64,000 bases of DNA from Balanoglossus misakiensis (lineage: Eukaryota > Animalia > Hemichordata), in the NCBI GenBank assembly GCA_040954595.2, contig CM082593.2, positions 7,352,043 through 7,416,042 of the forward strand, in the 5' to 3' direction. A model generated the notes under the pieces. It did no database searches. It was not told where the DNA came from and worked only from the letters and a program-made list of their open reading frames with translations. This document shows positions 15,249 through 60,020 of the stretch, in pieces. The position numbers and the translations under genes are program-made. Every line of letters begins with the position of its first letter. The stretch's first letter is position 1.

Positions 15249-15279
<31 letters not shown>

Positions 15280-32468: not shown

Positions 32469-32479
32469 GGGGAAACCCC
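32469..32479 (+). promoter_or_regulatory. NF-kB (kappaB) site upstream of IL-17 copy 1
   Basis: GGGGAAACCCC about 120 nt upstream of TATATAA (about 32597). Confidence 0.65.
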
Positions 32480-32711: not shown

Positions 32712-33519
32712 ATGGCAGGGTTCGACTCGAGAAATTTGAAAACAAAGCGAACGGTAAGATTTCTGTCACATGATGGAGACAAAACTCCACTAAGTTGTAC
32801 TTCTGTCGGCAGTCTAGTTTTCCGGACAGAAAAACACCTGTTTGCATTGTGACACGTGACAAATTGACAATCGAAGTGACCAATTGGCATCGAAATCACA
32901 CTGGAATTGTACTGATAACTAAGAAAATGACACGTTCACTTACGTGAACATGAGAGATTGCGTCTATCTTATTTTTATACGCTAACATCATTTGACATGC
33001 TCATATAGTACATTAATGAGAATTATTTACGTCGATTTTCAGGCAGTTGTTATCGTTTGGCTTCTGTTTGGTATCTGTGGTACCAGCGCTGGGCCTGTCT
33101 GTCAGCATCCAAGCGATGACGAACTCCGAGCGATGCTGAGTCAGTACGTACCGAACGCCCTCTCCTTCGCCACCTCTCCCGGTGCCTTCAGCGCCCCAGC
33201 CTCGACGGACTGCCCGGTCGGTTACGGCAGCGGCGCTCCCCTGTCGCTGAGGTCCAACTGCCCTTACTACAACGTGGAGAACACCGACGAGGAACGCTTC
33301 CCGAAGACCCTGGTGGAAGCCGAGTGCTACCGCTGCCAAAAGTGCATCACCGATCTGCGCGACGAGAGCGACTACCACCCGCTGTGGCGCTGCGAGAAGC
33401 TGACGGCCAAAGTCTGGGTGTTGCGCGACAGCGGAGTCTGCATCAACGGCCTGTACCAGTACAACGCCGTCCAGGTAAACGTCGGTCTGGCTTGCACATG
33501 CGGAAGGGAACGATTGTAA
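32712..33519 (+). CDS. IL17: Interleukin-17 family cytokine, copy 1
   Basis: Exon 1 32712-32753 (MAGFDSRNLKTKRT|gtaaga), exon 2 33043-33519 (phase 0). Signal peptide, RSNCPY, DEERFPKTLVEAEC and terminal CTC are IL-17 cystine-knot hallmarks. Confidence 0.9.
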
Positions 33520-36500
33520 GCATCTTGCGGCCGAGTACGTCCCGACTAGCATCTTCCGGGAACCCAGGCTTCTAAAAGTTTCTCAGATCGCATCTAAATC
33601 TAAATGAAAAGCTCATGCATTTACAGAAAAGTTTCTTTTTATAAACATACCAATTTGAATTTTATTTTGCAGCATTATGAAAAGCGTTTTGGGCACATGG
33701 CAATATTCGTCTCACTGAGATGGATAGTCGCGCACACTTTTGAAGATATTTGATTATTCGTACATCTGTCACACTCAAACTCTGTTTGCATGAGGCAGGT
33801 ACAAGACGTTGTCTTGTCGTCAAAGATATTACTTACTAATTTATTTAAAATAAGCGTATATAACATTTTGACATTCACGATGCTGACCACTTTACAAAGT
33901 AAATGACGTGTCAGCTTGAGTTGCCAATTTTTTTTTCTGACCACGCAAGTTATGCATCCAATTATTCATTGGGTAACGGGCAGCATGTGAACTTTGACCC
34001 GTAAAGGTGATAGTTCACACAGATCCGCCAAGTGCTCAGTGATCTATCAATGTATGTTACGTTTTCAGTGACACCATTTGTAAGTTGTTACAACTTAAAT
34101 ACATGTAATCGATTGTCATCGATTGCTAAAAATATTTATTTGAAAGTAAATGTTTTTATACATTTTTGAAAAAAAATATCAATGCAGAAAAATTATTCTT
34201 TTTTTTGGCTATTGATACAATTTGTAGTTTCTTTTTACAAATGCTATCAGGAGTTTACATTTTCGTATATGAATTAATCAGTTGTATTTGATTACTTCGA
34301 AAATGTATTCTAATTTATTTTTACATATGTAAAACAAAAACTTATCCTTGAATTGTATTTATTTATATTTTAGTCATATGTATCTTTAATTTATCATGCT
34401 AACTTAATTTTTGTTACAATTTAGCTAAATAAATATGTTTTGGTGCACTATATCTTCAAGTTGTGTGTGCATTTCATTCTCGGGGGAAAGCATGGAAATT
34501 TGTGTTTTTCTTCTTCTGGCGTTTTCACTTCTTGATTGCTGTCAGTATTTAGACGGCAAGATGCCGGGATCATGGACAGGGACGGTGTCCCATGTATGCT
34601 GTCGACAAGCGCTTGTGCCGTTTTGGTCCGGCGTTGTTATATAACTGCGCGTTCATGAAACACTGAATTCACACGGAAATCGTCTACGGCAGCACCTGCG
34701 TCGCCAACTTACACAAAGAAGGCGTGAGCGACTGCTAACAGTCCGTCTACCATGTCAAAATGCGTAATGACACCACTCTATAAGAAGATGGCTTGCTGAT
34801 GTTAAACTACGTTCTCCAGAAGGCCGCATGGTCTTCGACGATTTTGTGAAAATTACTCAAGTTGCAGATTCTCGACCTCGGAAGAAGCGCACATATAGTT
34901 ACATACAAAGTTCGGCAAGGGTGTGTCATCTTTTGTGAAATATTTGACCCAGACCCGGAAAAGTACTTAATATACTATCTCGTGAATCTTTTGTTGTAAA
35001 ATCTATGCCTTACTTTCATTAAACTCCCAGGGGAATATAGGCGATCCGGTGCATAAATCTAAAAATAACTTCGCCGACGTCACTTGCACGTTTGGTATGC
35101 GGATATAGACACGATATGCGCTCCTCTGTTATTAGGCCCCGCCCACGTTGTCTCTTGTGTTGTTTTGTGTTGTTTTTGTTTATTTGGGATGGGTTACCAG
35201 TAACAACGCTAAAACTGCATGAGATAATCACTGTGAGTATGGGCTATATGACGTATACATTCCAATGGTCTATCAAGTGTGGAAATGTCTACATTGCAGT
35301 ACACGTACGTCACCACTGAGTCACCTGAGTCAGGCCTACTAGCTACAGTCGAGGGCAGCCGATAATTCGTTTTACTCAACCGAGTCGTTGATGGCGCACC
35401 TCATATGCAGACAGACAAATCGGTGCCCTTCTTTACTTATATGTTTTGACCTTCCTACAACAACTCAAATCAATCATATCAAATCAAGATATTCTTTACA
35501 CTGTGGCCTTCGGAGTCTTAAGTATTACTTGACAGGTCTACTATTTCGGTAAATATCTGTAGACAACGCAAATCTGATAACAGCTGTATGAGGAGACCAT
35601 CCCGGGAGACCATATACCGAAAAACATGACCCATTTTTTTTATAACCACAACTTTGACGCTATTTTAAGTCTAATTATGTCATAACCCGACAACACATTT
35701 TGAACAGCGTAATATCCGCGTCGCACCCGATCCTGTTTGGTCAACAAAAATACAAACAAACAAGCACCCTTCGCAGCAGACGTCACAAAATACTTGTAGG
35801 TCATTCGAACAATAGAGGTGAAACGCACTGTTTCATGATGGCGCAGCGTGGACAGTGACTCTCCCTATAGGCCTATCGCTAATTGAGCAAAATCCTACGC
35901 GTACTAGGAAGCATTCGAGAATTAAAACTGAAGTATAAGCTTAAACAGTATCGACTGATCATTTTGGGAAGTGCTGAAGACAACAGCTACGCCCGGAAAG
36001 TTACATGTTGTTCTAACTTTGTTGTTCTGTTCCGACTTCCACCCGGATGTGAACCGTGACCACAAACCCCGTTATACCGGAGCTAGTCCGAAAGGCGCGC
36101 CACTAAACACCATTCCATTCCAAGACAATGATTATCCACGTCAGATAAGACAAATATCACTGCCTGCAATTAAAAAAACATACATTGTTCGTGAATAGAA
36201 TGGGGACAAAATGGTCATTTCAGTTTTCCTGGTTGGACGTCACTGCACGTGCAACAGGTTGCTCTGACGTCATCCAGTCAGCAGACGACATCTGTTTGAA
36301 GAGATTTTGTTCGGTAGATCACTGTCGACTGGATGATGGATAGAGGAGGAAAACAACGGCTTTCTAAAAACCGCTATAGCTGCTTTCTGTATACTGATAA
36401 ACTACAATAAACCAAAACTGGATCAAATGAGATACCAGTGCTCATTTTTGCCCATTGAAAGTCAAATAATCAGCATTGTGTTAGTAAAAATTAAAAACCG

Positions 36501-36807
36501 TTTTTGAAGTGACAAGAACAAGAAAATATACAAATTAAACTTTATTTAATAATGTAAAAGTTTGACTGTCCTTTACCGTCGAAAAGGTCACGTGACCATT
36601 ACATAGAATACTGCAAGCAGAGCACGTAAATTTCCAGGATGCTTATTAATAAACAATCGTTATGATGAATTATTTCGGAATTCCATCGTGGTTGTACTAA
36701 ACCCAATGAATACGTAATGATTTACTCTCCATTCGTGCTCATAGCATCTGCTGCACTAACGCGTTGTAGCTAGGCGTGGCGTGGCACGTTTCCAAGTGAC
36801 ATCATAA

Positions 36808-36818
36808 GGGGAAGTCCC
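36808..36818 (-). promoter_or_regulatory. NF-kB site upstream of IL-17 copy 2
   Basis: GGGGAAGTCCC (reverse complement GGGACTTCCCC) about 600 nt upstream of the ATG. Confidence 0.55.
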
Positions 36819-37413
36819 GATTCAGGAAGAGGAGTCACGTTACTAAATTTGTCGCGCAAATCTCTAAAAGATGAACGCATCTATCTTGGTTGTTGACACA
36901 AAATGTATAAAAACTGAAGTTTTGAAGTGAACAGGTATTCGGGCTGACCAAGACAGACAGACAGAGAGACAAACCAAGACACAGACAGCAGCGGTAGTCG
37001 GCGATCGACGGTCTTGTAGCGTCCAGTTGCAGCATCACGTGACATCTATTGGTTGAATCAAGAACCCCCTAAACCCCCTCCCCTCCAAAAAAACTCCCAG
37101 TGGAATACCGAACATCATGATGAAATCGAAATATGTGGTGAGTTTGTCCACTATGGAGAACGTTGTGTTTAACAATGTATAGTATTTTAATGGGAGAGTT
37201 GTTCTATGCAAGACGGCCAGGTCTTCAGGGATAAAGAAAACCAGAGTTGTTCATGGCGATGCCCTTTGCCATTGGGTTTTTTTTTGTCGAAAGAAAACGA
37301 CTTTGAATACTTCTGCGTATCGGGTTTACAGCTCTGCAGACGAACACTGTTTGTATCCTTTAATAGGCTGAATGACGTAAAACTCTGAGTAAAGATAAAC
37401 CATTTTACTGTGT

Positions 37414-38047
37414 ATGATAAAACTAGTGAAGACAAACTTAGTATGTCAAGCATCACGACCGCATCCATGATGCGTATTTATTTGTGTGGAGAGGGAACAT
37501 TTACTTTTTCTTTTCTTTTTAAAATCAAATTTAACAAATCTACGTTTCCGATTGTTTGCAGGTTGCCATTATTGTCTGTGTCATTTGTATCTGTGGTATC
37601 CATGGCAACCCAGTCAAGCGAGATGCGTGTCAACACCCGAGCCAAGACGATCTCCGAGCTATGCTGAGCCAGTACACCAACAACGCCCTTTCCTTCGCGA
37701 CGACACCGGGAGCCCACAGCCCGCCTAATTCGTCAGCCTGTCCCGGCGACGACTACGGGCGTGGAGCTCCCTTGGAACTGCGATCCAACTGCCCGTTCTA
37801 CAACGTCGAAGACACCGACGACCAGCGCTACCCGCCCACCTTGCTTCAAGCCGAATGTTACCAGTGCAAGAACTGCTTAGACGACTCCAGAGAATCCGGG
37901 TATCACGTGATGTACAGATGTGAGAAACTCACGCATCACGTTTGGGTCTTACGTAACAGTAATATTTGCATCGGGGGAATTTACCAGTACAACGCCGTGC
38001 AAATCGACATACCTGTTGCTTGCACATGCGCAAGAGAGAGACGGTAA
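37414..38047 (+). CDS. IL17: Interleukin-17 family cytokine, copy 2
   Basis: Probable exon 1 37414-37440 (MIKLVKTNL|gtatgt), exon 2 37562-38047. RSNCPF, DQRYPPTLLQAEC, CTC. AATAAA at 38545. Confidence 0.9.
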
Positions 38048-40575
38048 AACCCGGCGGAGTGGTTTAGGTTTTCACGTCTTGGTAAAACATCCAATGTGAA
38101 GACATATCTTTCACTTACAAGGTATATCGAATACTAGTAACTATGCTATAAGTGTATTTGTTACTATTTCTGAAACCTGTTTGTAGATATTTATTACGAT
38201 AAAGCATACGCACATTTAGGTGTATTACTAAAAGTATTTTACAATGTAAAATTCATATTTCAAGTTGTCCAGTCGTCGACACAGCAAAACACATCACAGC
38301 ACAAATGCAAGGCACCCTTCCTTTATTTAATTGTCAACGCGCAAGTCATGCGTCTTTTTAACGTCCCATCAAAACAGACCTGACGTTGATATTCCACCGA
38401 AGGTCTTTTATTACGATGGGACTTTTATGTATGTTACGTTCTAGTGACATTAATTGTACTCCCAGTGAGAATTGCTTATCATATTTATTTCATTTTAAGT
38501 TATTTAAATTATTACACTTGTAGTCTGTGTGGGCTTTTCCTTACAATAAAACGCATTACATTAGAAACAATATTCCTCGTGTGTGTGATCGCTTTGCTGG
38601 AACTTGTACAATTTGATATCGTAATTATTATTGCGTGAAAATGAACATATAACAATGACTAGTCATAATCATTTAAGCGATGCATCACCACATTATGTGC
38701 GAAAACACCAGCGGATGACCTATCGAAATCGAAAAAGGGGTCTTTACGCAGGAGAATGCGTGCGTGGAACAGCGACAGGCTGCTTCGTCATTGGGAAACC
38801 GAATTTTTGAGTTTGGGGCGTGTATGAAGCCACGTTAGATGTAGACTTGCTCCAAGTCTATGGGCTTCATTATGTGTAGGGAACGCGCAGTCGACGCTAC
38901 CCGAAACCACAAGCTCAGTCCCAAATTCGAAACTCACCTCACTACCAAAAACACGCTCAAGGCAAGCATTCACGCAAAAAGTATTGAAATTATTTATTAA
39001 GACAAAAAAACCCACCGAAAACACATTAGGCCTAAGTATTGAGATTTAAAAATCACCAAGCGACTAGTGGGCTAGTCTAGATTGTATGACGCAGGGGGGC
39101 GTATAAGACTTATCTCCAAATTACTTATGGCTAAACTACTTCAGACGAAGTGGACGGAGTACAGATAATTTCTTGGGGACTAAACATTATGGCTCTATAC
39201 GCCTGGTGCGATGCGAAAAGCACAATCCTAAAGTTTGGTCCGGCGCCGGCAACGATATACAGGTCACGTGGTTTCCCTTTGACCTTTGCGCTACATTTTT
39301 TAAACTTTGTACTATATTTTCGATTGTTGTCCTTTTTTATTTTTATTGCTAATGTCAGACGTCACAATACGCAGACTGGACATGGTTTTCTTTATACTTC
39401 CGCATTGAACAAAACTATTTGCCTTATCCACTGTGAGTCACAACAGTCTCACTTGACACGGTTATAAAACTGGCGTACGTCACTGGCATTGGTAAGGCCA
39501 ACTTGAACAGAACGACCGACGATAAATTTCAGCTCCGGAATGGAAATTTCGTGCGCGATCCACCGTGATCCTGATTTTTTTTATTTTTACATTTAAGTTT
39601 TTTTTCTGATCGAGTTTCTCATATGCCCACGATTCGCTATTGCTGAGAAATGGGTGAAATGTTCACTCAAATTATTGTTGTTGACGTCACTGTGACGTGT
39701 GTGGCACCGGTTTTTCTAGATTGGAAGATCTGCTGTGAGTGGACTGTGGAAATACTCATAAATAACCCGGTACGGATACTACTTTTTTGAAAATTAGGTT
39801 AGGCAGGTCGGAAATCTTCTAGGATTTTGGATTTTTTCGAACTTCTGCTGTGTGTTTTGAAGGCGCCTAAAATGCCGGACTGTCACCAGTTCATGCACTT
39901 GGCTTTTAAATATTTGGGGTTGGTCAGCCTGAGAACCACAACAATGTTTCGGCCGTAGGCCTACAAAGGAGGGAAAGATCACCAAGAAAGATTTCTTCAT
40001 AAAAGTATAGTTCGCATAGTTTAATAATCTTTAAGTTTAATAGAGCTATGAAAAAAATCTCGACAGTGAAATATTTACAGTTTCAGTGATTTGTCTAAAC
40101 AAAAGTACATATTATAATCTTGTAAATTATATAAATAAAGTTCATTGTGTTCGCCATAAATAAAAGTTACAATAAACAAATTTATATAAAGAAAAAAATA
40201 CAACGGTGTTCTGTAATGTGTTCCTCGCAAGAAGGACAACTGACGTCACTAAAACGCAACATACATGAAATTCCCATAAGATGACCCTGTGTGGTTTAAT
40301 TTTGTCAATCCACGTCGTTTTGATGGGAACATAACTGTTATAACAAGACGCGTTACTTGCGTAATGATTAAAAAAAAGACACATATCAAGTCGCTGGATC
40401 CGAAGATAAAAAAATTAACTCGCAAACCCATTTAGACTGAAAATATGGCTGTTTAAAACATAAAATAATACAATTTCTACGTACTTTGTTGTGCTATGAA
40501 TGTAAGCACCATGAGTTTGTATTCGTTTCGGACGGATCTGTAATTTTGCGCCAATATGAACTAGTATATTTTGAG

Positions 40576-41926
40576 TTATCTTCTTTCTCTTGCGCATGTG
40601 CAAGCAATAGGTATATCGATTTGCACGGCGTTGTACTGGTAAATTCCCCCGATGCAGATGTTACTGTTACGTAAGACCCAAACCTGATGCATGAGTTTCT
40701 CACATCTGTACATCACGTGGTACCCGGATTCTCTGGAGTCGTCTAAGCAGTTCTTGCACTGGTAACATTCGGCTTGAAGCAAGGTGGGCGGGTAGCGCTG
40801 GTCGTCGGTGTCTTCGACGTTGTAGAACGGGCAGTTGGATCGCAGTTCCAGGGCAGCTCCACGTCCGTAGTCGTCGCCGGGACAGGCTGACGAATTTGGC
40901 GGGCTGTGGGCTCCCGGTGTCGTCGCGAAGGAAAGGGCGTTGTTGGTGTACTGGCTCAGCATAGCTCGGAGGTCGTCTTGGCTCGGGTGTTGACACACAT
41001 CTCGCTTGACTGGGTTGCCATGGGTACGACTGACGGAGATTGCGCACAGGATAATTGCAAACTGCGAAAAAAATAATTATGAAAACGTCATAAAATTTGT
41101 TACATAGATTGATTTTCATTTCAAAAACTATAGTTTTAAAGTAATATTTTAAACTGTTGTAGTGTTGTGAGAATTTCCAAACAATTTTGAAGCAAGTTGA
41201 CTAAACCATGTGTTCTTTCGTGGAGGTCTACTGTTTCAAGGCAAACGTCCAGTTATTTCCCAGACTTAGATGGTTTCGGTTACTTCAACTATTAGCAATT
41301 TCCTGGTATAATAAAACCCTTGAAATCTAAACTACGGTCTTACTAAGGAGTGTACTGTTTTGATGAAGTTGCTGTTAATCTCGACTACACGGATTTCCGG
41401 ATGAAATAGAATTTGGTCACATTAATTATTTATTTTTTATTCTGGACAGAGTGGTGGACGCTCATGTTGGTGAAGATTTTAAGGTTCCCTGGAAACTATT
41501 CTTGCCCCACATTTCGGCAATGCTAAAATATAAGTGACGACTTTATGAATTAATACGGCGAGTTTGATTCCGTTATGTGTGTGATTGGTAGTGCGTTGAA
41601 TTGCATGGATGATGTCAATATACCAACTGGAAATGCTCATGGTGTGGGTCGGATTCTGTGTGCTGGTGCAGTGAATGTGTAGTGATTTTATTAAACGGGT
41701 TCGGATTCCTGAGAAAACGTTTTCCCTTGAAATTCTCACCCTACAGAAATATCGTTTGATGACGGAACTGATTATGCATGCATACAGGTTGTTGATCACG
41801 TGGTCTAAAGTGGGGTGGCACACGTGAAAGTCTTATGGAACAAAAATGTGCCGTTTGTTATAAAATGCCTCTACACGTTAAAAACAAAAAAAAACTCACC
41901 AAGAAATGTGTGTATGATTGGTCCAT
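40576..41926 (-). CDS. IL17: Interleukin-17 family cytokine, copy 3 (inverted; mature region near-identical to copy 2)
   Basis: Exon 1 41926-41900 (MDQSYTHFL|gtgagt), exon 2 41061-40576 (ttcgcag|FAIILCAISVSRTHGNPVKRDVCQHP...). TATAAAA at about 42110 on the minus strand. Confidence 0.9.
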
Positions 41927-42209
41927 GCTTATAGCGTTACTTGTAAATGTTGAAGTAAATGGAAGGGTCTTGAATGAGTTTAGTCACGCGATGTCGGTGG
42001 ACTTCGGTACCGTCGATGATCGTCCGGAAGGCTGAGGCCCAGTTGAGAGTAGTGTTCACCTCCGTCGGAGTGTTCAAGTCGAATGGCTTTTTGCTCGAAA
42101 TTCTCATGTTTTTATAGAAATGTTTCGACAGTACCAAATTAGCTCGCTCGGAAAGGAGCAACCTATTCGCGATCGCATGTTGCTAAAATTACGACAGGTT
42201 CCTGGCCGA

Positions 42210-42220
42210 GGGGAATTCCC
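42210..42220. promoter_or_regulatory. Palindromic NF-kB site upstream of IL-17 copy 3
   Basis: GGGGAATTCCC about 95 nt upstream of the minus-strand TATA box. Confidence 0.7.
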
Positions 42221-44170
42221 TCAGCCTGAGAGCTTTCTTCCGTGAACAAAACCAGCACGACCGATCCGTGTGAATAATGGATCTTATTTTTTAATTAGGG
42301 TACTATAATACAATCGCTCTAAAATTATCTGATAGTTAGTAAACGAAGTGAGTCACTGTCATGACAACCAGGTAAACAGTCGAGTCCCCCGCGGCCAGCG
42401 GCTGTGTTGTTGGGGACGTGACGCCTGGAGTAACCGTACGGGCCAAAAACTGCACCGTTAGTATTATACACACTTTTGGGACTCGACTGATAAAACATAT
42501 TTACATTTATACAGGCGCATATACCCATGCGCACTAGTGTCAGCCATTTCTGCAATGTACCGCGTCGACCAAAGCTGCAAACGATCAAATCGGCTCTGTA
42601 ATCTGTTTTTGAGACCTCGAGTGGGCAACTTATATGGGAAGACATTCTCATGTGACACAGGACAAACAACGCATTGCCCATCGTGTAATAAACGTACAAA
42701 CATTTTACAATTTTTGTTAAATTCTTCACCTATTCTAGTTTCATTACAAAACTTGCCTTGTATTTCTTGTCTTGCAACCCGTAGGTTTCACTGTACTTTT
42801 GCAGAATACAATTGTGTTATCGATATTCATCTAATCTTAACGACGTCATCGAGTCTACTGGGTTCGCCCCCAAAATATGGTTTGTAAACAAGCCCTTTAT
42901 TGATTTTATTGCGCAATCGATTGCTTCTCAGAATAGCTGAATTTACTTCATGCGATGTTATGAAACCTGAGTTCAAAATAAAGATACGTTCTTTTGCTCT
43001 CAGCCATTATTAAGACTGTTTAAATAATTAATTGTAGACTGCAGGAACAGCTAAAGACGTCTCAATGTTTAAGGATAACTGTGTCAGAATACAGAGAAAA
43101 CAACCGACACGATAGTACAGTGACTCGTACATTCAACCAGGCGGGAAAACTGACAGGAACGACGAACAGCTGCCGCACACTTCAGGGTGTCCACCGGAAA
43201 GTTCGACAACTTTCTTCCCTTTGTCCGAAATTTCACAACGTCTAAATCAAAAGGCGAGGTATAAGATTGTGACGTCATACACACGCGGTACGCGTCGCTT
43301 CGTGACTTACGATAATGTCGCACATCGCTGATGACGATATCTTGTGACTCACCCAAAAGGAACATTCGAAAGTCGTACGGGGAAGTGCAGGACGAACTGT
43401 TATCAAGAGGTTACCATACGGAGGTATACAAAACTAAGGTATATCTTCTGGACGTATACACTAAAGTAGATCGTCTATGATGACCTTGGCAGTGTGAAGC
43501 TGGTCATTTTTGTCATTGTTCCATGACGGAATAAAATCAATCACTTTTTTCACATCGAAATTATCTTTTCTTAGGAACTGATTAACCCACAGTCGGGAAA
43601 ATTAAACTTTAATTATTATTTTCTATCCGCAACTTGACAAAAAATAGAAGATTTCTAATGTATCTCTCGCCATACAGCAATATCATTTCGTCTAAAATTC
43701 CTATTCATAAAGAGTTCATAACCGAAATCAGTCTAACTTATTTTCTATTTTGCCTATATTAATGAAATTTTACCACAAAATGTTGATCTTGTACCAAAAT
43801 TGGCCAAAATAAATATTGGTTGTCGTCGTGATGAAATTGCTGCAAAAAAGAAGTTATCTAAACGGAGGACAGAGCGAAAAATGTCGGGCTGGAATCAGAC
43901 ATTTAAAGGTGTCTCCATACTATGGAGGTATAAGGAAGTGGTCTCGCTAACTTACAACGAAGAACATTGGTCTTAGTTGTGACCACCGCCTTCGCTTGTT
44001 ATCATGGCGAACAATGGCAATGACGTAAAGGAGAACTGTCATGGACGGTGCCGATGGTGGCGCTCGCCATGAATCAGTCTGCTATGTCGACACACCCCCG
44101 TGTGTTTTATACGCACAGGAACTCGAGGAAAACCGGTATCTATAGTTGAAGATAGCTGTGAGATTTTGCA

Positions 44171-44503
44171 TGGGTGTGTATGAAAATAATGGAGGGTAGT
44201 CGTTCAGACATTAAACAGGGGCCTTGGGCTTCATTGGAGTTCAACATCTGAACGATGCTTATAACATGACTCACAACAACATCTGGTGTACAGCATGGCC
44301 AATCACGAAGCACATACTGCTGTCCTGTCAGCCAATTGGCGTGGGTGTGTATGAAATGAATGGAGGGTAGTCGTTCAGACATTAAACAGGGGCCTTGGGC
44401 TTCATTGGAGTTCAACATCTGAACGATCTTTATAACACGACAACAACATCTGGTGTACAACACGGCCAATCATAAAGCACACAGTCCTGTCAGCCAATTG
44501 GCG
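44171..44503 (+). repeat. Tandem duplication of a ~170-bp unit (2 copies)
   Basis: TGGGTGTGTATGAAA..GGAGGGTAGTCGTTCAGACATTAAACAGGGGCCTTGGGCTTCATTGGAGTTCAACATCTGAACGAT..GTCCTGTCAGCCAATTGGCG occurs at 44171 and 44342. Confidence 0.9.
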
Positions 44504-46282
44504 ACTGGAACATGTACAACTATATACAGTGATTTTCATTGGTTGAGGATGCATGGCTTCACCAGGTGCTTTGAGACATCTGTGACTGTGCTTCATTCGT
44601 GTCACCTTTTTCACGGTAGAAGCCGCGTGTCGGATGACAACGAGTCCTCAGTGCTCGTTACCCAAAGTACGTAAAAATTTGAAGCAAAAAACATGGAAGA
44701 AGCTGACTTAAGCTCAGGTTTACCACATCAAAGCAGATTGTTTATGCCAAAGACGCAATACTATAATTGCACACATCTTCATTTATTCCGGATTTTAAAC
44801 CCATATGCCAAACACTCGCTTCATACAGAGGGGTATAGGGTTGGCCAGCGAGACAAACGAGGAGCTCTTCGTCAGCATTTGGGTGGTAGAAAGACTTTGT
44901 GGTTAAAATACAGCTACGGTGGCGGCCATATTCGCTTGCGGCAAAGCTTTATTGTTTATCTGGTTAAAACTTGCATATGCACTCATATTTAGGGTTTATA
45001 ATGCTTGTGTATGGTTCACTGCCTTCATCTGCATGGACTAATGGTAGTACAGTTTGAAACAAAAATTATGATAATTATCCCAAAAGTTGCAGCTTATGTG
45101 CCTTTAAGTGCGGAAGAAACGCGGAAAAACCCGCGGAAGTACCAGACTCAGCGAGTCTAAAAAATGTCAACGATCGCAAAATTTATCTTATGACTACAAT
45201 CGGAACTATTTTGTGCATGATTATAACCTCTCCATATCGTATAAATCAAGTGAATTATATGAAAACTACACTGACATTGTAGCAAATTGCTTGATTTCTG
45301 TACATATTAAGATTGGTTATTTACAAAAATTACTTTAATATTCTGCTAGATTGCGAATGTCTATACATGTACTAATTTTTTTACAGAAATGTTCTCAAGA
45401 CGTTATTCTCGCACAAGTAGTTCGGATCCGATCGTGGTAATTCGAGAGATACCTCGAATGAATACAGGAATATTTTTTTAATAAAACGAGGCATGTCTAT
45501 TGTAAAGCATAGTACCAAGTTGATTTCATCCATGGTTATGCGCATTCCATATTACACGCCGGAAGTGTGGATAAAAAACTTGGCAATGAAGGTTTTTATG
45601 ACTACACCTGACCATGTAAATGTGCTTGGTTCCTTGTTCCTACTTACCGGCAAACAAACTGTCAAAAATGCGTTCCTCAGTTTTGTCACGACATTATGAC
45701 AAAAGATTTGATTGAGAGAAAAAAACGCAATTTGGAGATAGAAGTAATTTTTGTCGAAATTCCGAAAATAAGCTTTTGAAGCATGGTTGCATAATGTGGA
45801 AAATCGCTGGGAAGTGGGTAATTAAGGGTCATAAATGTCGAGGGGTATCGAACGCGTCTGATCACTTGAAAACTGCACACACTTTCTTCGTTTTAGAACG
45901 CGCGTTGTCCTTAACCGTCCATTGAAGTCGTTGCATTCTGGTGGACGAATTATGACATGTCAACGACTGTTGCTTTGATACCAATATTAATAAACGAGGG
46001 CATTATAATTTTAATTTGAGTTTTTCTTGATACTTGTGTTGATAAAGAAGTATTGCGGTCTGATAATTGTGGAAAGTACCGGTCAAAACAGTGACGACAC
46101 TTTCAACTAAGAATAGAGTTCGTGATAAAAAAAAAACTTCAACCGCCAAGGTAAAAGACATTTTTATTGGAGTAAAATCATATAAAAGACCTATTGCCAT
46201 CCAAACCAAGTCACATTTTACTTGCTTTGAGAGAAGATCAAGACCGAAGCAGAGATTTCAACGTCAGAACACACGTACAACG

Positions 46283-47347
46283 ATGGCGTCATTAATGAAA
46301 ACCACTCTGGTGAGTTTACATGATTTCTCGTTGAGTATACTCGAAATCTTTGGAAGCTTCATGTTTGCCGCTGTCTGTGCGCACGAGAACCATCATGTGG
46401 TGCAAGAAATGTGAGATGGTTGATACATGCTATACCCAGAAAGCTCTTCGTGGTTACTCACGTTCCGTGGCAGTAATAAGTTGAATTTCGAGAAAACGCT
46501 ATTGTCATTTTCATGAAACTGTTCAAAAAATGCCGGAAGAGATGTTTATCCACTGATATAAAGGAAGCACTATGTTACCATGCCCGATTACTAGTTTTTT
46601 ATCAGAAAATATATTTCAACCATAGAAAAACTATAACACGTATGGAGAGTGAAGTTAAGGTCTTATTTGAGATGCAAAGCATAGGTCAACGTGTTCACAG
46701 TCTTTAACTGAAAATACACCGTTTGCTATTTAGTTTTCTTGATTTTAAAATTCATTTAAAAGTTTAAAAAAAAAAACAATATGACAATATTTTAAATTTT
46801 GAGTAGTCTCCAAACTTCGTGTTCTTTATCTTAATGTAAGCTTATTTTTTTTCCCCAATACCAGGTCGCATTCCTTTTGTGTATGGCTCTTGCGGATAAT
46901 GTCCATGGCAGTCCGGTCAAGCGAGAGGCATGCCAGTCCCCGAACGAGGATGCTCTCCGAGCCGAGTTGAAAGAGTTCGCGAACAACGCCCTGGGCTACG
47001 CGGTGACATCCGGGGCCTCCACCCCGCCCAACGTGACCGACTGCCCCGAGAGCTACGGGCCGGGCGCTCCGCTGGAACTGCGATCGAACTGCCCGTTCTA
47101 CCATGACGGAGTCACCGACGGCAACCGGTACCCGCCGACCCTGCTGGAAGCCGAGTGCTACGACTGTGCCTATTGTCTCGATGATTCCTCCGAAACCGGG
47201 TTTCACGCCCTCTACCGATGTGAAAAACTCACCCGAGAAGTTGTAGTTTTGCAAAGGGGTGTGTGCAGTAACGGCACTCATTACGATTACAACCCTGTCG
47301 TCTACGACATAGCCATCGCTTGCACCTGCGCAAGAAGTCGTATATAA
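46283..47347 (+). CDS. IL17: Interleukin-17 family cytokine, copy 4
   Basis: TATAAAA at 46181. Exon 1 46283-46309 (MASLMKTTL|gtgagt), exon 2 46865-47347. RSNCPF, NRYPPTLLEAEC, CTC. AATAAA at 47818. Confidence 0.9.
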
Positions 47348-50300
47348 AATAACCATAAATAGCTCTAACGCTTCGATACTTCTGGAAAACGAAATTATGA
47401 AGACTGCATTTTTCATTGGCGGAATTGCTATTTAAATTAGAAATTAGGGATTTTCTTATTATTAAGCGTATTATCAATATCATCACTGCATATATTCATC
47501 TTAAGTTATTTTTTGCTCAAAATCGTCTACTCTTACATGAGCACTAGACATTTCATTCTGACGTGTACAATATGTACAATTTTCCTCGCGAGTATCACGC
47601 ATGTTATTCTTAAAGATTTCCCAACAAAGAATGTGTTTTGTCAAAAAAATTTAAAATGTATGTTACGTTGTAGTGACACAATAATGTATACCCCGTTCCA
47701 GGGCTATTTTCGTAAGGCATTATGGTGCGCATGCGCATGGCCATTGACTCATTTGTCGCTGGATATCTCATGTTTACTCTGTAACGAAACCGCAGTGAAT
47801 AGACTGCTTGCATTGCAAATAAAGTTACTTTCTGACGGACATCTATACATGGTCAAATGAAAGATTGAGTGTCTCGTTCTCAAACAAGTAATGTAACATC
47901 GCAGATCACGTCGTTGTGAGGGTGTATAGACATGGACGCAGGTATAGGCCTATGCAATAGTAACTGTGTATATTCTAGTTACTTGTTGGGTAGATTTTGT
48001 TCATATATTCACAGTATCTCTAAGTATAACCACAGTAGTTATGATCGAGCTGCTATTTTATTACGGAGATAAATCAGTAGGAGCTATGGATGCTACTTTA
48101 CGCTTTGTTAGCAGTAGGCCTAATTCTGAACTTGAACGAGTCAGTTGTATGCCAACTTGGCCTACTCACTGACTGTATAGAGGAGACCAGAGAACATGAC
48201 AGAACAGCACAGCACAGAACAGAACAAAGTAAAACATTGCAGAATTTCACACACAGAGTTTCCGCTTTGAGTTTGAAGCGACGTAGTAAATGTACCCCTT
48301 CTACAAATTTCATTCGCCTTCGAACAATAACACGTGACGTACGCGTTCCCTAAAGAGGTGCGCCGAGAGGTAACCATGAACACTGCTTCATTGACGGGTA
48401 CAGCGTACACAAAGTATGACGGCATGGAACTTGATATTATAGGACTACGTCAAACTACGTACGGCAACCGTGCCTTGCATGACGTCACAGCGGTCAATCG
48501 ACCTCGCTTATACACGGTTGCCCCTTAATTCACACCCTGTGTGTACTACCGCCCAACACCGTTAAAATTGATCGATACCGGGGTTTCCCCGCTCCGCTCG
48601 CCAGCCAAGCGTACTTCCTTCTTCGTCAGTCACAGACACATCCCTTTGTTAAGGTCATCAGGCAAAAGAAAAAAAAGGGAAACGGTGCCCGAAAATACAT
48701 ATAGCGACACTTGATGTTCACGACACGGTTGTAATGCATCGTCGTAAACGACACGCCTTTTTACGACAACACCTCCTGCTCTGATTCGCGAGAATGAAGT
48801 CATGGTGCTTCTTTACTGAGACAGTTTTTCAGCTTTTATTGCAACGAACCTGGAAACTGCAAACTATGTCAACAAAGCAAACTCACAAAATGGTAGACAA
48901 CGAAATCTTTTTTTGGCAGGGTCACAAAGTCTCTAAATTTCTTTGTATGACTTGAAAAGTTGCGCGTTTTTCTTGTGTAGAGTTTTTTACATTTTTCTCG
49001 AGTAAAAGTCGTATGCTTTTGTAAGACTGCTGTTTTCTCGAAAGCAATGACATGCTTTAAAGAGTTAAGTCGTGGACGCTATGTTTATTACTATCTCCTG
49101 CCTATGACAAACTTTGACCAGATTCTAATAAACCTTCCATGGTATGTATTGCGCGCGCACAACTTCCGCCGGCGAGTTGGGTGGGTTATGATCGATTTTG
49201 CGTGAAAATCACCACAGTGATTAATGATTTGGGGGTGTATGTATATGACCATGGATCACTCTCAAACCGGACATCCAAACGGCGTAAATACAAATACCCG
49301 GATTGAAATTGTTTTTGTTTTTTTATCCGCACTGTTTGCTCCGGGATGCGGACTTTATAATCGGAAAACATGTTACAGCAACATAGATATGACTGATTCC
49401 ACACCGATACAGAGAATAGACTTTACATACCTTGGGAAGTAATTTCAGCAAGTGAACTTCGTGGTAGCTGTTAACTGTGTCTGGGCTGATGATCAGTTTG
49501 CTTCGACGAAAACCTGTATCAGAGTAGTACGCTGTAGTCCGGACAGGTGGTAGACTGAATGAAAGGCGCGTGGACTATAAGTGATATTTCAATACCTCTT
49601 CATGCAGAAGCTAGCGATCTTCTATGGATGGAATTGCGGAATTGAAATTTAGTAAAACAGATCATTTGCTTTTCGGTAATTTGTGTTATTTATATTAGCC
49701 GTGATCGTTTCTGTCATCCGGGTCACGCGGCCAAAAATATCAACGGCACTTGAAATGACATCCTCCGTAAAAAAAATAACACCAAAGGGTGGTGAATCTA
49801 TCATTTTGCGCTGTAAAACTTCCCTTCCCGTGGAAATAATATAAGGAGATATAAGTACAAAGGGATTGGATACTTGCTCAGTTACGCATTCAGGGCATTG
49901 TATAGTGTTTTCAATAAAAGCATAAACATTTTATCTAAAGGTATAACTGACACAGTGGAAGTTATCGGCCGAAAACCCTTCAGAGTTTCAGACGGGCGTC
50001 TGAAAAGCTGTCGTGTTTCAGTGTTCCATTGGCCAGTACTGTAAATGCACCCGAACACACCCACCCCTCCCATTTCCTTGAAATCAGATCAAACCATATA
50101 TACCAGCAGGTAATTGTGAATAGATGGGGACGTACCTCTGGTCTTCTTATTTGTTGCTTAAAGTGGAGACGCCTTGTGACAATGAATGTTTCGCTAATAT
50201 ATGAGCAATTGACAGTTTACCGTGAACACTTTATCAGCGAAACATCTGGAGAAGTTCGATATTTGAAACCCCCGGTAGAATCTTGTGACTCCGTTGTGAA

Positions 50301-52325
50301 TGGGGATGGTCTCCATTACCGACGAAAGTACCCACGTATAAGGTGCTTGTAAAGTCCCTTATTTACCAGGATTACTCCAAAAGGACCAGACTTACTTTGA
50401 CGCAAATTGAAATTAAATTATTATATGACGCTATAATCATTCAAAGTGATGTGAGATTAATACGGTTTCGTTCTGTGGGGGAAAGAATCGAAATAATAGA
50501 GAATTTTGAAATTGGTAGAAACTCACTAACTCACTCACTAACTCACTCACCCATTCACTCGTGATATATCCGAATTAGGCCTAATCATTTTAATCAACGC
50601 CATTATAGCAAGTTTCAAAGTAGGAACATGAAAGATAATAAACGAAATTGACCAAATGCAAACTCCAGTGCGACGTTTAAGACATACTCGCCGCTGTCAG
50701 TGACGAGGAAAAAGAACTCTACCACCTGTATGTTTTGCTCTTTGGGACGTGTACATGTGTATTTATGTTCCTTTCTGATTTACAAACTTAGCTCAGGGCA
50801 AGCGAGAAGAGCTTGATTGCCGTTTCCACCACCACAGTCCTTCCACACACAGAATGGACGTGTCTTCATGATGTCGCAAGTTGTTTTCACAGATTGCAAA
50901 CATTCAGTGTATAGTTAAAAAGTGCCGCACCGACCGGAAGATTTCCTAAATATATTTTACATCCACCCTTAAAATGGCATTCGTGTGGGCGCAAGTGGTT
51001 TTATGCTACCGTATAACGGACTCATATTGCATGCATAGTTGACATTTTTTCCCTCTGAAGGTGTGTCGGGATTTATTAATAATGACGGGAGAACTAAAGC
51101 AATCGGGGAAAAAATCATTCCGATGTGCTATGAAAATCTAATTACCTAGAAATGTAAGAGATCCGACTGTTTCTTAGTAAAATCTGGCATCAGCGACGGA
51201 GGATTAGCGATATTTATTGATTTCACTCCACACCATCTTTATATTTTATCACTATTGAAGTCATGGTGCCACTTGCTAAATGTTAGCTTATACTAGTATT
51301 AAAGAAAGGTGTGTATTTCATTGACAGGATTCATTAAAATTGATACAGAAGTAAGATTAATTTCCGATAGAAGTATCCATAAAGCAACACTTTAAATGAA
51401 CATGTTGATTAACCAAATAAATTACAACTCCCCACAAAAACTGTAAACGAATTTATAGGGCCTAAGTAATTTTGAAAGAAATCTTGTGTTAGCTAATTTA
51501 GCAGAACACAGTTTCAAACTCCAAGTCTTATACATTCCAATAAATATCTACCAACACGAGCATTTGTGCGAAACCAATGTCAAGAGTACAGGACTAAAAA
51601 AACGTACACTAGAATACACTGGCAGATATCATGGACGAATTTTTGATATGTAGCATATTAAACATCCACATTAGTCTAGGCTTTATACGCACTGTTCGCG
51701 CAACACCGGCAAAACCGGAAGTACTTGAAATAATTCTGTCTAAGCTACTTGTTTGCCTGATTCAATACACGAAGCTTCAAAATCTTGTGTGTGTATATTT
51801 TACTAATAATATCATCATTACCACAAGTGGCAGTATTTCAATTTGTGATTTATCAATATTTATGGACAGTATCTAATACCTATTTCCCTCTGATGTACAT
51901 CCTGGTAGGCAATCCATAGAGTCTACTGTATATTGTTAACATTCAATATTGAGTAGAATGCTAAATAGGGGAAGTGTGGCTCCCTACTTCGGATCACGGT
52001 CATTGTGAATTTCTTCTCGACTCGTTCATACAGGATCACCGTTACTCATCTGTTAAATATAACCCCCTCCCCTCCCCCCTCTCGGTCTTGCTCGGTATGT
52101 CGACACATTCCGAAATTTGGAGTTCGGGATGCCTAAACAGATTCCAACATTACGCAAGTTTCCAAACTTGTAAGTCTAATAGGGTATATAAATTCAAGCC
52201 CGTTGCCAACCAAGTCAACATTATACAGAGATCATCAGTCTGCTAATACTATTAAGGGCTGCTTTGGCATATCCTCCACAAATAGTATCTGGTTTTAGAG
52301 ACTGCTGCCAGCTTGAAACTTAAAC

Positions 52326-53165
52326 ATGGATCAGATTGACAGATGTATGGTAAGTACTTGACTTTTTTTCATCGATCAGTGGTTAACTTATGGTATAGCC
52401 AGTACCAGGTCTGTTTGAGAGCTTTTTAAAACAATGTTCATTAGTTTTTATCCGTTGAATTGAAATACCGTTTCGGTGGAAAAATTGCAAACTTCCATAC
52501 ACGTACAGATAAAATCATGTTTCTCAATCGATATAAATTGTCGTTATTTTTTTTATTTCACTGCTGGACTTCTAGTAACGATAGTAACGTACAAACGACT
52601 TGTATTTACATCCCGTAAAATTCATTTGAGTATTCTGCTCAGGTTTGTTAATATTCCCGGTGTCTTTTTTCAGATTGCGTGCTTCCTTGTCATGATGGCT
52701 ATCGCAGGTAGCTATGGCAACCCTGTCAAGCGACAAACATGTCAACAACCAAGCGATGAAGCTCTGGAGGACATGTTAATGCTGTACACGCCAAACGCCC
52801 TCTCCTACGCCACCACTTCCGGGTCCTACAGCCCGCCCTCATCGACCACCTGCCCAATTTCGTATGGTTCAGGCGCCCCCTTGGAAATCAGATCGACCTG
52901 CCCTTACTACCACGTTGAAAACACAGACAACGACCGCTACCCGCAAACCTTGGTTGAAGCCGAATGCTACGATTGTCAGAACTGCATCAGCGATCTCATC
53001 GAGAACTCCGACTACCATCCAATATGGCGGTGTGAGAAGATAACGACTGGTGACCTCTGGGTGTTGCAAAACACCTACACCTGCAACGCGCACGGTTTCT
53101 ACAATTACGTACCAATCAAAGTCAAATTATCAACAGCTTGTACTTGTGGCAGAGAACGCGTTTAG
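52326..53165 (+). CDS. IL17: Interleukin-17 family cytokine, copy 5
   Basis: TATATAAA at 52185. Exon 1 52326-52349 (MDQIDRCM|gtaagt), exon 2 52674-53165. RSTCPY, DNDRYPQTLVEAEC, CTC. Overlapping ATTTA run at about 53329-53341; AATAAA at 53799. Confidence 0.9.
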
Positions 53166-56100
53166 GTAATGAAGAAACCAACGGATTTCGTTTTCTTTCG
53201 CTTTGCTTTCTCGTTTTCGCCATGTGCCAGTTCCGCTATGCCTGCGTAGATCGTCACACGACTATTTTACATATGAATTATTATAGAGTTTATGCGAATT
53301 TTATTTTCCTGGAAACATTATCTTTTAATTTATTTATTTATTTGTCATTTTCATTTGTCCCCTGTGGACTCACTACAGAGATTGGATTATACATGTACAA
53401 TGTACATGTCAGTATTTATGCCTGGAATGTACAACATTTAAACTGTAATAACCCCGCAAGTGATGCGTTTAACTTACATGTATATGACCCAATGGTATGA
53501 AGCCACGGCTTTGGTAATCACTTCTTTGAAAAAAGGGAGTATACGATAATGTTTTGAAATCATCAGTGAAACTACAAAACGATTGCTACTATCGTGCTCT
53601 GAGAAACAGAAATCGCTGAATACTTTGGGTCGTATGTGTGGATTTGTTAGTTACGTTATAGTGACAACTGTGTAAGTTTTGAAAACTTTATTATTTCTCA
53701 TATACGGTTGAAATTCCGTAATCTGTTTACTTTCTTTCTTTTAAACTTTTGCGATGTTGTCTAGCATGTCATCAATCAAACTTTTAATAGGAAACTTTAA
53801 TAAAATGCAAAGATGCTTCTATAAATAGTTTGTGATGTGTTTTATGAGAAACGGAGATGCTCGCCAGTATGTGTATGAATGATAGAGATAGAGCGACAGA
53901 GAGAGAGAATGCGACAGAGAGAGACAGACAAACAGACAGACAGACTTTTGTTGTCGGTCGTTTACATTGCGGACTTCATCGGCACAAGCTGAGGAAGTCC
54001 TTCATGCTTGCAATAATAATTTCCATTTTATTACGAACATGACACATACACATATATTGGAAAATCCTAAGATATATTGCCAGTTTGTGAATTAACCCCA
54101 TCCCGTCACGCCCTATACGTATACCATACGTGGCATACGACCTAGAGCTAAAGGGGGGGATGTGTTGAGAAATTGCAGTCAACGGTGCTGGCTGAGTTAT
54201 GCTTAGTTTTCAATAAATAGTACGCCCCCTCTCACGTCGACTCCTTTCCGGTTATCCCAGAATGCATAGCGTCTTACGTCATGGAGTTCCGGTTATCAAA
54301 ATGGCAGACGACATGTAAGTTCGTAGTCCAGTAGACACTGAGTGACGGTACAGGCATTTGAAATGTTTGAATTTCGCCAATCTACGGAGTTTTGTGCTAT
54401 TGAAAAGAGGTAGCGTTAACGTTTTTCATTTATGCGATGATTTCAGGAGATCTACGCGTGTTTGAACAACATTTTCGGATATAATGTAGGCCTACAAGCT
54501 AGCCTTTCTCGCCAGTGGTGAAGACTGCAGAATGTGAGTTATTCGCTCAAGGAAGAGTATCAAATGCTCCCAGAGATTTGACAAACTGACAAGGGTTAAC
54601 GTTGGACGACGGACCTCCGCCACAACCCACCCCTTCCCATCAAACAGGTAATCAATTGATGTACTGTGCAGACATGGGACAAAGACTCTTTACTTGCTAA
54701 CATGTCTCTCGAGGTCGACGAACTTTATGATGCGGAGCATTTCGCAGTCCTGGGCTTCAGTTTAATTGCTATGAGGAATATGTGCATGTAATATTTCGCA
54801 AGATCGTACAGAATCACACAGGCTCTACACAAATGGACAGCCATATGGATGTTGACATCTTTCAGGGTAAGTCGCATCTTTTTCTAGATGGTCAACATAA
54901 ATCGATCGGCCTACACTGGCATACGATCAGTACGCGCATGGGCTAGTGACATTTTGCGCGGGCGATTGCTGGGTAGTCTTGTAAGACCTGTTTTTTTTGG
55001 TCGGCCTGGCTAAACCTGTTCTGACACTGTGAAGCTTGAAGCGGCATCCGCGCCTATTACGCCAAGCCTGGGTTCATCCCCAGATTGAATGTGCGCCCTC
55101 AACATTTCGCTGGGCCGGTGATTGCTTGGTAAAACCGAGAGAATTATTTTCCCTTCCGCCGGACGACAACTGACTGTCGTTGAAACGATTTGTCGGCATT
55201 TTGGACCGCTGTGTTACTTAAATGTGGTGCCTTTTGTCTACTAACTTGCGACGATCATCATATTAGTGCAAATTATAACATATTTGTAGCCCCTTGTAGG
55301 GACCGTGTTAATAATTTTGTCGACCTTGGCGGCGAGATGTTCGTCAAGACGTTTAAGTTTACGACGGATACGTGCTTTTCCCCCTCAAAGAATCGTGCCT
55401 ATCACCACTGTCAAACTAATGTCCAGTGATATAACCATTGGGTTATTTACCGTACGTGCGCATCTTTCCAGGAATATATCTTTTTGTCACCTCAAATGTT
55501 GTGACGCGTCTGTGTACACAATTCCCTTGGATATGCAAAGGGAAGTGAATTCACCGAAACGTTTAAAGGTCATACTGCAAGTTGTTTGCTGTAGATTTCA
55601 ATTTTGAAAAGAGGTTACCTGTGTCTTGAAAACAGTCCGAAAAAAAGCTATAGCGAAGGGGATGTTTTTCATAGCCACTAACTTAAACACACAGAACTGT
55701 GTAATTATCTTCCACACTCACAGAAAAGATTAAAAACACGTGTAAAGTTGGCGGTAAATATTCATATCTTCCATAGTTCGATCGCCGGTATTCACTGATC
55801 TTGTTTCTGGAAATGGCAACTGCCATTGTCGGCAAAAACATGACCGCTGGCAAAACAATTCTTGAAGGTCTACTTCCGCTAATACACATGTTTGACTTGT
55901 ACTCAAATTGTTATTTACGTCAAATTAGTTTATCCGTTGCTCGGCCACTTTCTTGGAATTCTCTCTAAGCCATTCCAGATTCTGTCACGCCAAGAATTGA
56001 GGTACTTCTCCGCATTCTACACATGCGTCGTCTTGTTGAGTGCGTTTTTATTGAAATCGATCTACAACCCTTCAGTTTACATTCTGCCAAGTGTAGTGGT

Positions 56101-59224: not shown

Positions 59225-60020
59225 ATTTATGTCGTCATCAACTTCTGCCAACGCCACTTGCCGGCCAGAGCTTTATATGGCCCTCTGAATCCCGACTGAG
59301 TTATCATTACAAATAGCATTTGTGCTTATTTTAAAGAATAATTATTCGTGCATTTGAATTTCCCCTAAAAGATTATATTTTTTCGAAAGAAAGTAAAATA
59401 TATTCTATTTATATATTTATATTTGCTGTATGCAGTTAAATGTGTCGAATTTATTTGTTGGTGTGCACCAACTTCAATTTCTGAAATAAATCCTATTTGA
59501 AAATGAAAAAACACACACATCCGTCATTTTGCTGTGCTCATCTGTCTGCCTATATAGATTAGCATACAGTAGTTCAGTTCGGTGCACTTTGCTCTTCAAA
59601 CTACATGTATACTTTCAACAATAGATCACACTGCTCTTCTGTATTGTAGAGTGATTAGTTGATATTTATTAAATAGTAAAGAAACTGAAAACAATGGATA
59701 AAAGAAATTCAATCGTTCATATTGGACAAACAAGTGAAACGAATTTCATTTCTAACGAGAGTCACTCTGCCAAATCTAGATAGAGACCATTTCCGGATAT
59801 CCCGGGATGCCTAGCTTTTTACGTCAGTTCCGGTAGTCAAAATGGTTGACATGTAAATTTCGTCATCGAGTTGTTCTCGAGTTTCGTACATGTTGTGGAA
59901 ACGTTTTTATGTTTACCAAACTGTGGAGTTTTAATATGTGAAGTTGAACGTATGTGTGTGGTTGGAAAAAGGTAGAGTAATTTTTTTCGTTACATATTCT
60001 AAAAGTCTGCAAACCCGTCT

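Follow-up and report, generated by a model that had tools for sequence, protein, structure and literature searches.

A short conserved element upstream of ADE-like hairpins in hemichordate IL-17 genes: a candidate accessory site for Roquin/Regnase-type mRNA decay

Introduction

In Caenorhabditis elegans, the ets-4 mRNA carries an alternative decay element (ADE) bound by RLE-1/Roquin and a neighbouring stem-loop, the RCE, that is cut by REGE-1/Regnase, and both are required (PMC9371910). From the primers in that paper, in which the ADE stands at the 3' end of F1S, we infer that the RCE lies 5' of the ADE; the primers also give the ADE loop as GUUGUA, preceded by AUGUA. Here we describe a similar layout in a window of 64,000 nt (GC content 41%) from the hemichordate Balanoglossus misakiensis (assembly GCA_040954595.2, contig CM082593.2, positions 7,352,043 to 7,416,042). 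In this window, a short motif that we call M1 precedes an ADE-like hairpin in the predicted 3' untranslated regions (3'UTRs) of five IL-17 genes.

Other composite systems have been described. Repression of Nfkbid needs several stem-loops, one of which is recognised by its structure, its sequence or both (PMC6145892). In NFKBIZ, too, several hairpins cooperate (bioRxiv 10.1101/2025.09.19.677199), and PMC10808253 assigns its active hairpins differently. The consensus of the Roquin ADE is a 6-8 bp stem with a GUUYUA hexaloop, and that of the constitutive decay element (CDE) a YRN triloop on a 6-8 bp stem (PMC6294493). Changes at position 4 and larger loops of the ADE are tolerated by Roquin (PMC11730611). 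The discussion of PMC9371910 describes the in vivo target choice of Regnase-family nucleases and Roquin's cooperators as open. Sea-urchin IL-17s are sharply induced and then attenuated, in a paper that does not mention 'UTR' (PMC5457136). In the literature searched, which took in few subscription papers, we found no description of M1 or of UTR control of hemichordate IL-17, and none of post-transcriptional control of invertebrate IL-17.

Results

M1 is a conserved short element of five IL-17 genes

Six single-domain IL-17 paralogs lie in tandem at 33.0-59.2 kb of the window (Pfam PF06083, E 2.7e-09 to 8.9e-14), with gene 3 inverted. Their main coding exons, the 5' edges of which are approximate in genes 1 to 5, are as follows.

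33040..33519, plus strand: IL-17 gene 1 (PF06083, E 3.6e-12)
37556..38047, plus strand: IL-17 gene 2 (PF06083, E 8.9e-13)
40576..41070, minus strand: IL-17 gene 3 (PF06083, E 1.2e-12)
46865..47347, plus strand: IL-17 gene 4 (PF06083, E 5.2e-12)
52671..53165, plus strand: IL-17 gene 5 (PF06083, E 2.7e-09)
58727..59224, plus strand: IL-17 gene 6 (PF06083, E 8.9e-14), an internal control without M1 and without the ADE-like hairpin

We recovered all five motif strings listed in an earlier note on this DNA, each in the position and orientation claimed. The full form of M1, CGCRAGU-N(1-3)-AYGCRU, is longer than the one quoted there, and 10 of its 14 letters (C, G, C, A, G, U, A, G, C, U) are invariant in all five copies. 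M1 lies on the sense strand throughout and starts 426, 294, 216, 241 and 291 nt 3' of the stop codon in genes 1 to 5, respectively; in genes 1, 2, 4 and 5 it stands upstream of the first AATAAA. From the stop codons and the AATAAA/ATTAAA signals we infer that it is part of the 3'UTR. We do not take the ATTAAA at 40300, within the spacer of gene 3, for a poly(A) signal, since it is destroyed in a second allele described below. The copies and their predicted folds are as follows.

33944..33957, plus strand: M1 of gene 1 (CGCAAGUUAUGCAU), 3-bp hairpin; in whole-module folds the 3' half prefers the AUGUAU preceding the ADE
38340..38353, plus strand: M1 of gene 2, 5-bp hairpin with pentaloop AGUCA
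40348..40361, minus strand: M1 of gene 3, 4-bp hairpin with an A.C mismatch, the same in the second allele
47587..47602, plus strand: M1 of gene 4, 2-nt loop insertion, inner pair G-C
53455..53468, plus strand: M1 of gene 5, 4-bp hairpin

With the ADE masked, the five 3' regions were searched for an ungapped motif at one site per sequence. M1 was the best shared 14-mer (score 92.4), with copy 4 placed on a shifted site. This score was reached by none of 60 dinucleotide shuffles (maximum 74.8) and by none of 60 sets of other window DNA (maximum 81.9). When M1 was masked as well as the ADE, the best remaining motif scored 69.0, which is null level. With a leave-one-out position weight matrix, the held-out copies scored 15.0-19.1 compared with 13.5-14.5 for the best non-member among 127,940 window positions; all five copies outranked the non-members, copy 4 by a margin of only 0.5. 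A covariance model trained on the five M1 copies matched nothing else below E 0.4.

Pairs of genes 1 to 5 share 35-64% of their four-fold sites, with the exception of genes 2 and 3 (53/55). The 3' flanks aligned no better than shuffles in 19 of 20 pairwise tests (lowest count 9/200), and those of genes 2 and 3 are also unalignable. Because the four-fold sites have diverged (except in pair 2/3) and the flanks are unalignable, M1 is, by this sequence evidence, not leftover homology. We conclude that M1 is a real, conserved short element.

Genes 2 and 3 (37552-38047 and 40576-41071) form a tail-to-tail inverted pair with coding exons 93% alike over 496 nt. Gene conversion confined to the exon is the likely cause, most of the UTR being unalignable.

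M1 always accompanies an ADE-like hairpin

In every module-bearing gene, M1 precedes an ADE-like hairpin, as claimed in the earlier note; the gaps from the end of the originally quoted 11- or 13-mer to the stem of the hexaloop hairpin are 100, 81, 89, 61 and 183 nt in genes 1 to 5. The description of the companion as a hexaloop hairpin holds for genes 2 to 5 and fails for gene 1, the loop of which has 7 nt (GUUUUCA). These predicted hairpins are as follows.

34056..34072, plus strand: ADE-like hairpin of gene 1, 7-nt loop GUUUUCA, AUGUAU just 5'
38433..38448, plus strand: ADE-like hairpin of gene 2, loop GUUCUA, 7-bp stem, AUGUAU just 5'
40245..40260, minus strand: ADE-like hairpin of gene 3, loop GUUUUA, 7-bp stem, AUGUAU just 5'
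47662..47677, plus strand: ADE-like hairpin of gene 4, loop GUUGUA, 6-bp stem, AUGUAU just 5'
53650..53665, plus strand: ADE-like hairpin of gene 5, loop GUUAUA, 5-bp stem

Genes 2 and 3 fit the ADE consensus, and genes 1, 4 and 5 deviate from it (7-nt loop; GUUGUA on 6 bp; GUUAUA on 5 bp) in ways that, by analogy, are of the kinds reported as tolerated. Like the Roquin ADE known from Ox40 and from selection experiments (SELEX; PMC5603727, PMC6294493), the companion has a C-G closing pair and, in genes 2 and 3, a GUUYUA loop. The likeness is confined to the companion: M1, with its A/G-rich loop of 5-7 nt and stem of 3-5 bp, is unlike the ADE. Gene 6 (stop 59222) has neither M1 nor the hairpin. 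The occurrence of both in five of five module-bearing genes and their common absence from gene 6 bear out the view of M1 as a separate conserved element accompanying the hairpin.

AUGUAU together with the 5' arm of the ADE could form an alternative CDE-like hairpin of 5-6 bp with a UGU (YRY) triloop in genes 1 to 4, exclusive with the ADE; it is predicted to lie 1.7-4.6 kcal/mol uphill, and gene 5 has none.

34050-34064: CDE-like alternative fold, gene 1
38427-38440: CDE-like alternative fold, gene 2
40253-40266, minus strand: CDE-like alternative fold, gene 3
47655-47669: CDE-like alternative fold, gene 4

Three further observations concern these regions. Directly after the ADE of gene 4, at 47684-47704, AUGUAU is repeated ahead of another, weaker hexaloop hairpin (CCC-GUUCCA-GGG). 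The same gene has a perfect TGCGCATGCGCA palindrome at 47726-47737, which we take to be NRF1-like. Gene 6 has a CDE candidate at 59367-59383, a 7-bp hairpin entirely of A/U with a UAU triloop, within a region that shows weak similarity to the spacer of gene 4 (E 0.03).

The spacer is predicted to fold into a helix

In the minimum-energy structure of each copy, the spacer between M1 and the ADE is predicted to form a single closed helix.

33966..34042, plus strand: predicted spacer helix of gene 1 (z -3.63, 0/200 shuffles)
38363..38422, plus strand: predicted spacer helix of gene 2 (z -4.88, 0/200 shuffles)
40271..40329, minus strand: predicted spacer helix of gene 3, base UUCCCAU/AUGGGAA (z -0.47, not significant); allelic variation in the interior, not the base
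47614..47652, plus strand: weak A/U fold of gene 4, the shortest spacer (z +0.60, not significant)
53482..53635, plus strand: predicted spacer helix of gene 5 (z -4.61, 0/200 shuffles)

Among 120 random 90-nt windows (25 shuffles each), none had a z of -3.6 or lower. The linear spacers of genes 1 to 5 measure 98, 79, 87, 59 and 181 nt; with the predicted helix formed, 21, 19, 28, 20 and 27 nt would stay unpaired. CCCA/UGGG closes the helix in genes 2, 3 and 5; the polarity is opposite in gene 1, and gene 4 has only the 5' arm. The earlier note overlooked both the IL-17 identity of the genes and the appearance of the variable spacer as a long predicted helix.

The M1 sequence is kept better than its structure

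In predicted module folds the M1 hairpin has a probability of 0.64-0.95 in genes 2, 3 and 5. Two pairs of the stem are invariant, and 20 of 25 cells are paired across the copies. The inner pair is A-U in three copies, G-C in copy 4 and A.C in copy 3; the outer pair is C-G in three copies and C.A in copies 1 and 4. The 2-nt insertion of copy 4 falls inside the predicted loop. A sequence kept better than its structure is as would be expected of a small site read by a protein.

Allelic variation at gene 3

We compared contigs from three DNA sets (runs X1-X3) of one sample, possibly the assembly's own, over the gene 3 region. The 3' region of gene 3 occurred in a second version at about equal depth, which is most likely the other allele. 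At 40023-40364 (342 nt) this allele differs by 18 substitutions and 4 deletions. None of the 22 events falls in M1, the helix base or the AUGUAU and ADE (together 53 nt; P 0.034 under uniform placement), and changes sit 2-4 nt from M1 and across the whole spacer interior. This pattern weakly supports constraint on the module.

One contig of run X2 joins 43469-43788 to 40397-40538, which may reflect rearrangement in one haplotype or a further copy resembling gene 3. A search at 42700-44200 for the further UTR copy suggested by this join (43788/40397) found no M1 and no ADE.

Comparison with known RNA elements

An iron-responsive element (IRE) has an unpaired C five pairs below its loop. The loop itself is CAGUGU (PMC6795136). 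M1 shares with the IRE an AGU triplet in a small loop; it lacks the CAGUGN hexaloop (its loops are AGUNA or AGUAUCA) and, with a stem of 3-5 bp, the 5-bp upper stem and C bulge. M1 also fails the CDE definition, as its loop has 5-7 nt and starts with A on a stem of 3-5 bp, and it does not itself fit the GUUYUA hexaloop and 6-8 bp stem of the ADE. A cmscan search of 32500-60500 against Rfam, to E 10, gave a single chance match to a bacterial small RNA and thus neither an IRE match nor any counterpart of M1, so that the earlier exclusion of IRE and CDE is upheld. Nor is M1 an AU-pure single strand of the kind preferred by the Roquin zinc finger (PMC11381341). Readings of M1 as an RFX X-box or as a C/EBP, xenobiotic response element (XRE) or Pax site were considered and dropped, as they would suit single copies or half of the motif.

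The closest system is the RCE and ADE of ets-4. In both, an immune-regulatory mRNA combines a hairpin of the ADE type with another stem-loop no more than about 100 nt upstream, and the ADE of gene 4 shares with that of ets-4 the loop GUUGUA and an AUGUA just upstream of the stem (PMC9371910). A second predicted stem-loop 5' of and close to the ADE is present in all five module-bearing genes, 19-28 nt away once the predicted helix forms. The likeness concerns the predicted layout and the ADE, not the RCE sequence. The ets-4 target is a transcription factor and ours a cytokine family, whose modules have a long spacer of variable length. Compared by description, the composites of Nfkbid and NFKBIZ likewise have multiple hairpins in a short UTR stretch, the relative position of which matters; they differ in that no CDE occurs in the ground-state fold here and in that Regnase on NFKBIZ reads stems, not loop letters (PMC6145892, bioRxiv 10.1101/2025.09.19.677199).

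A search of metagenome contigs with an IL-17 profile gave 81 pattern matches and no confirmed locus, and a search with the ADE pattern gave no match.

Relatives and neighbourhood of the cluster

Ten IL-17 homologs were found, the top five being Ptychodera flava proteins (50-80% identity); proteins of Glandiceps talaboti and Saccoglossus kowalevskii come next, in keeping with an enteropneust hemichordate as the source. A 16-row protein tree groups gene 1 with P. flava P0002 (support 99/97), gene 6 with P0005 (100/100) and, more weakly, gene 5 with P0004 (86/61); gene 4 is a long branch. As gene 1 has a P. flava partner of its own, the duplications that separate it from genes 2 and 3 are probably older than the split from P. 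flava, and the same is probably true of the M1/ADE module.

Perfect matches to what we take to be the kB consensus (11-mers) lie at 32469-32479, 36808-36818 and 42210-42220, ~100-130 nt upstream of TATA-like boxes of genes 1 to 3, which is consistent with pulse expression. An extra perfect 11-mer is present at 48580-48590 (minus strand), between genes 4 and 5. The cluster adjoins a two-exon TGF-beta family gene (PF00019, PF00688; 23855-27008, minus strand), presumably Nodal-like. Its flanks also hold a multi-exon subtilase gene (PF00082; 60549-63745, minus strand) and a gene with right-handed beta-helix (PF13229) and, by eye, tetratricopeptide repeat-like exons at about 11600-18100 (plus strand). 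Dispersed repeat elements between the IL-17 genes, marked by very high contig depth, lie at about 38840-39080, 42630-42730 and 44900-45110.

Discussion

Our findings show that five IL-17 genes share a short sequence in fixed order with an ADE-like hairpin. We tentatively favour the reading that M1 serves as an accessory site in a composite element for mRNA decay of the Roquin/Regnase type. Like one of the two options in the earlier note, this makes M1 a putative protein-binding RNA site that cooperates with the ADE-like hairpin. In this view, the hairpin downstream of M1 would be bound by Roquin. The predicted long helix would fold the spacer away and so place M1 next to that hairpin, within about 19-28 nt, where the small M1 hairpin would be read or cut by a second factor, making the IL-17 message short-lived after induction. 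As at the ets-4 RCE, our best guess at a named partner for M1 would be a Regnase-family nuclease. The invariant loop letters of M1 may point to a sequence-reading component.

Several observations weigh against this reading. Regnase has little sequence preference in vitro (PMC5943514; also PMC9371910 and bioRxiv 10.1101/2025.09.19.677199), which leaves the invariant M1 loop letters unexplained, and the YRY-loop preference seen for Regnase by cross-linking and immunoprecipitation (PMC13732794) is absent from M1. ADEs can act alone (PMC6294493). The M1 hairpin is marginal: isolated folds of genes 1 to 5 have -1.6, -5.1, -4.9, -2.4 and -3.5 kcal/mol (z -0.13 to -1.59), its predicted probability is 0.30-0.47 in gene 4 and 0.00-0.15 in gene 1, and 5 of the 25 stem cells are unpaired. 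Covariation among the five copies is not significant (212/500 shuffles). The A-U to G-C exchange of copy 4, put forward earlier as compensatory, therefore carries little weight, and copy 3 breaks the same pair. In genes 3 and 4 the spacer helix does not reach significance (z -0.47 and +0.60); the sense strand folds better than the antisense strand in genes 1 and 5 only, and the antisense spacer folds equally well or better in genes 2, 3 and 4. For M1 alone the allele test gives P 0.43 (0.14 in the local bubble) and has little power; its islands were chosen post hoc and all reads come from one sample. Finally, the comparison is based on paralogs of a single genome.

A bolder form of the composite reading holds that M1, as the site of a putative sequence-specific RNA-binding protein, forms with a length-tolerant spacer helix and the Roquin ADE a cytokine-decay module of three parts, ancient among deuterostomes. 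We consider this form doubtful.

Next comes the view of M1 as an independent UTR element, by which a sequence-specific protein would control translation, localisation or stabilisation in the absence of Roquin cooperation. The 10 of 14 letters that are invariant, loop included, despite a weak stem would suit such a protein, and ADEs can be self-sufficient (PMC6294493). This view does not account for the strict co-occurrence, order and co-loss with the ADE, nor for the predicted spacer helix, which keeps a similar effective distance in those copies where it is strong, and we regard it as unlikely.

Somewhat less likely still is a DNA element, namely a spaced inverted-repeat transcription-factor site through which each duplicated gene would be enhanced or silenced from downstream. 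Being Watson-Crick, the invariant pairs can be read equally well as a DNA inverted repeat; RNA-specific covariation is lacking, and folding is weak. However, copy 4 has a 2-nt insertion between the half-sites, M1 is inside the predicted UTR, and it is linked in a fixed manner to a hairpin in which a U-G is invariant and the loop matches that of an RNA element bound by protein.

M1 could also be a second, non-canonical Roquin site at which two Roquin molecules act together, as on Nfkbid, where repression requires several stem-loops (PMC6145892). Roquin tolerates odd loops (PMC11730611), but the M1 stem of 3-5 bp falls short of 6-8 bp and its loop is neither YRN nor U-rich, which makes this improbable.

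The suggestion in the earlier note of a microRNA (miRNA) target site has little to commend it. CGCAAGU is a contiguous 7-mer in four of the five copies; copy 4 breaks it, and a loop that varies and can expand divides the conserved letters. A miRNA is not known to pair with a target block 3' of the seed match, and the second conserved block of M1 lies there. In the supplementary lists of PMC3247247, which hold miRNAs of sea urchin, sea star and Saccoglossus and are not a full hemichordate set, none has a seed for the shared 6-mers: ACTTGC occurs outside seeds only, and CTTGCG, ACGCAT, ATGCAT, ACGCGT and ATGCGT in no listed miRNA. GCAAGU does have a complement in miR-4851, which the lists give for sea urchin only, but it stands at nt 6-11 of that miRNA. 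By eye, these lists gave only single-copy matches of 6-7 nt (miR-153 in gene 1; sea-urchin miR-242 in gene 3).

Just as improbable is a structural switch, in which the 3' half of M1 (AYGCRU) would pair with the AUGUAU before the ADE and so choose between the ADE and the UGU-triloop CDE-like fold. The two are complementary at 6/6 positions in genes 1 and 2 and at 5/6 in genes 3 and 4, and the 5-6 bp alternative hairpin is available in genes 1 to 4. Pairing is predicted at 0.84-0.93 in gene 1, the sole gene in support; in genes 2 to 5 it costs 6.6-11.1 kcal/mol (P 0.00-0.04). Gene 5 is without AUGUAU, the CDE-like fold is uphill as given above, and the invariant 5' half of M1 is left unexplained.

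That M1 is a functionless remnant of duplication or patchy gene conversion is least credible: the coding exon of genes 2 and 3 was recently homogenised (93% over 496 nt; 53/55 four-fold sites), but flanks are unalignable even between these two genes, and a 14-nt island common to five old paralogs beats all nulls.

M1 adds a small element not described before to a kind of system that is already known. Five naturally diverged copies and a module-free sixth paralog provide a ready set for reporter constructs and pull-down baits. If M1 is indeed an accessory site of a composite decay element, Roquin-type control of IL-17 would extend beyond vertebrates and a new small RNA motif would be added. If the three-part module is real, the five copies would be a natural mutagenesis series in which geometry, and not linear distance, couples the second factor to Roquin, and they would reveal what specifies a Regnase target in vivo.

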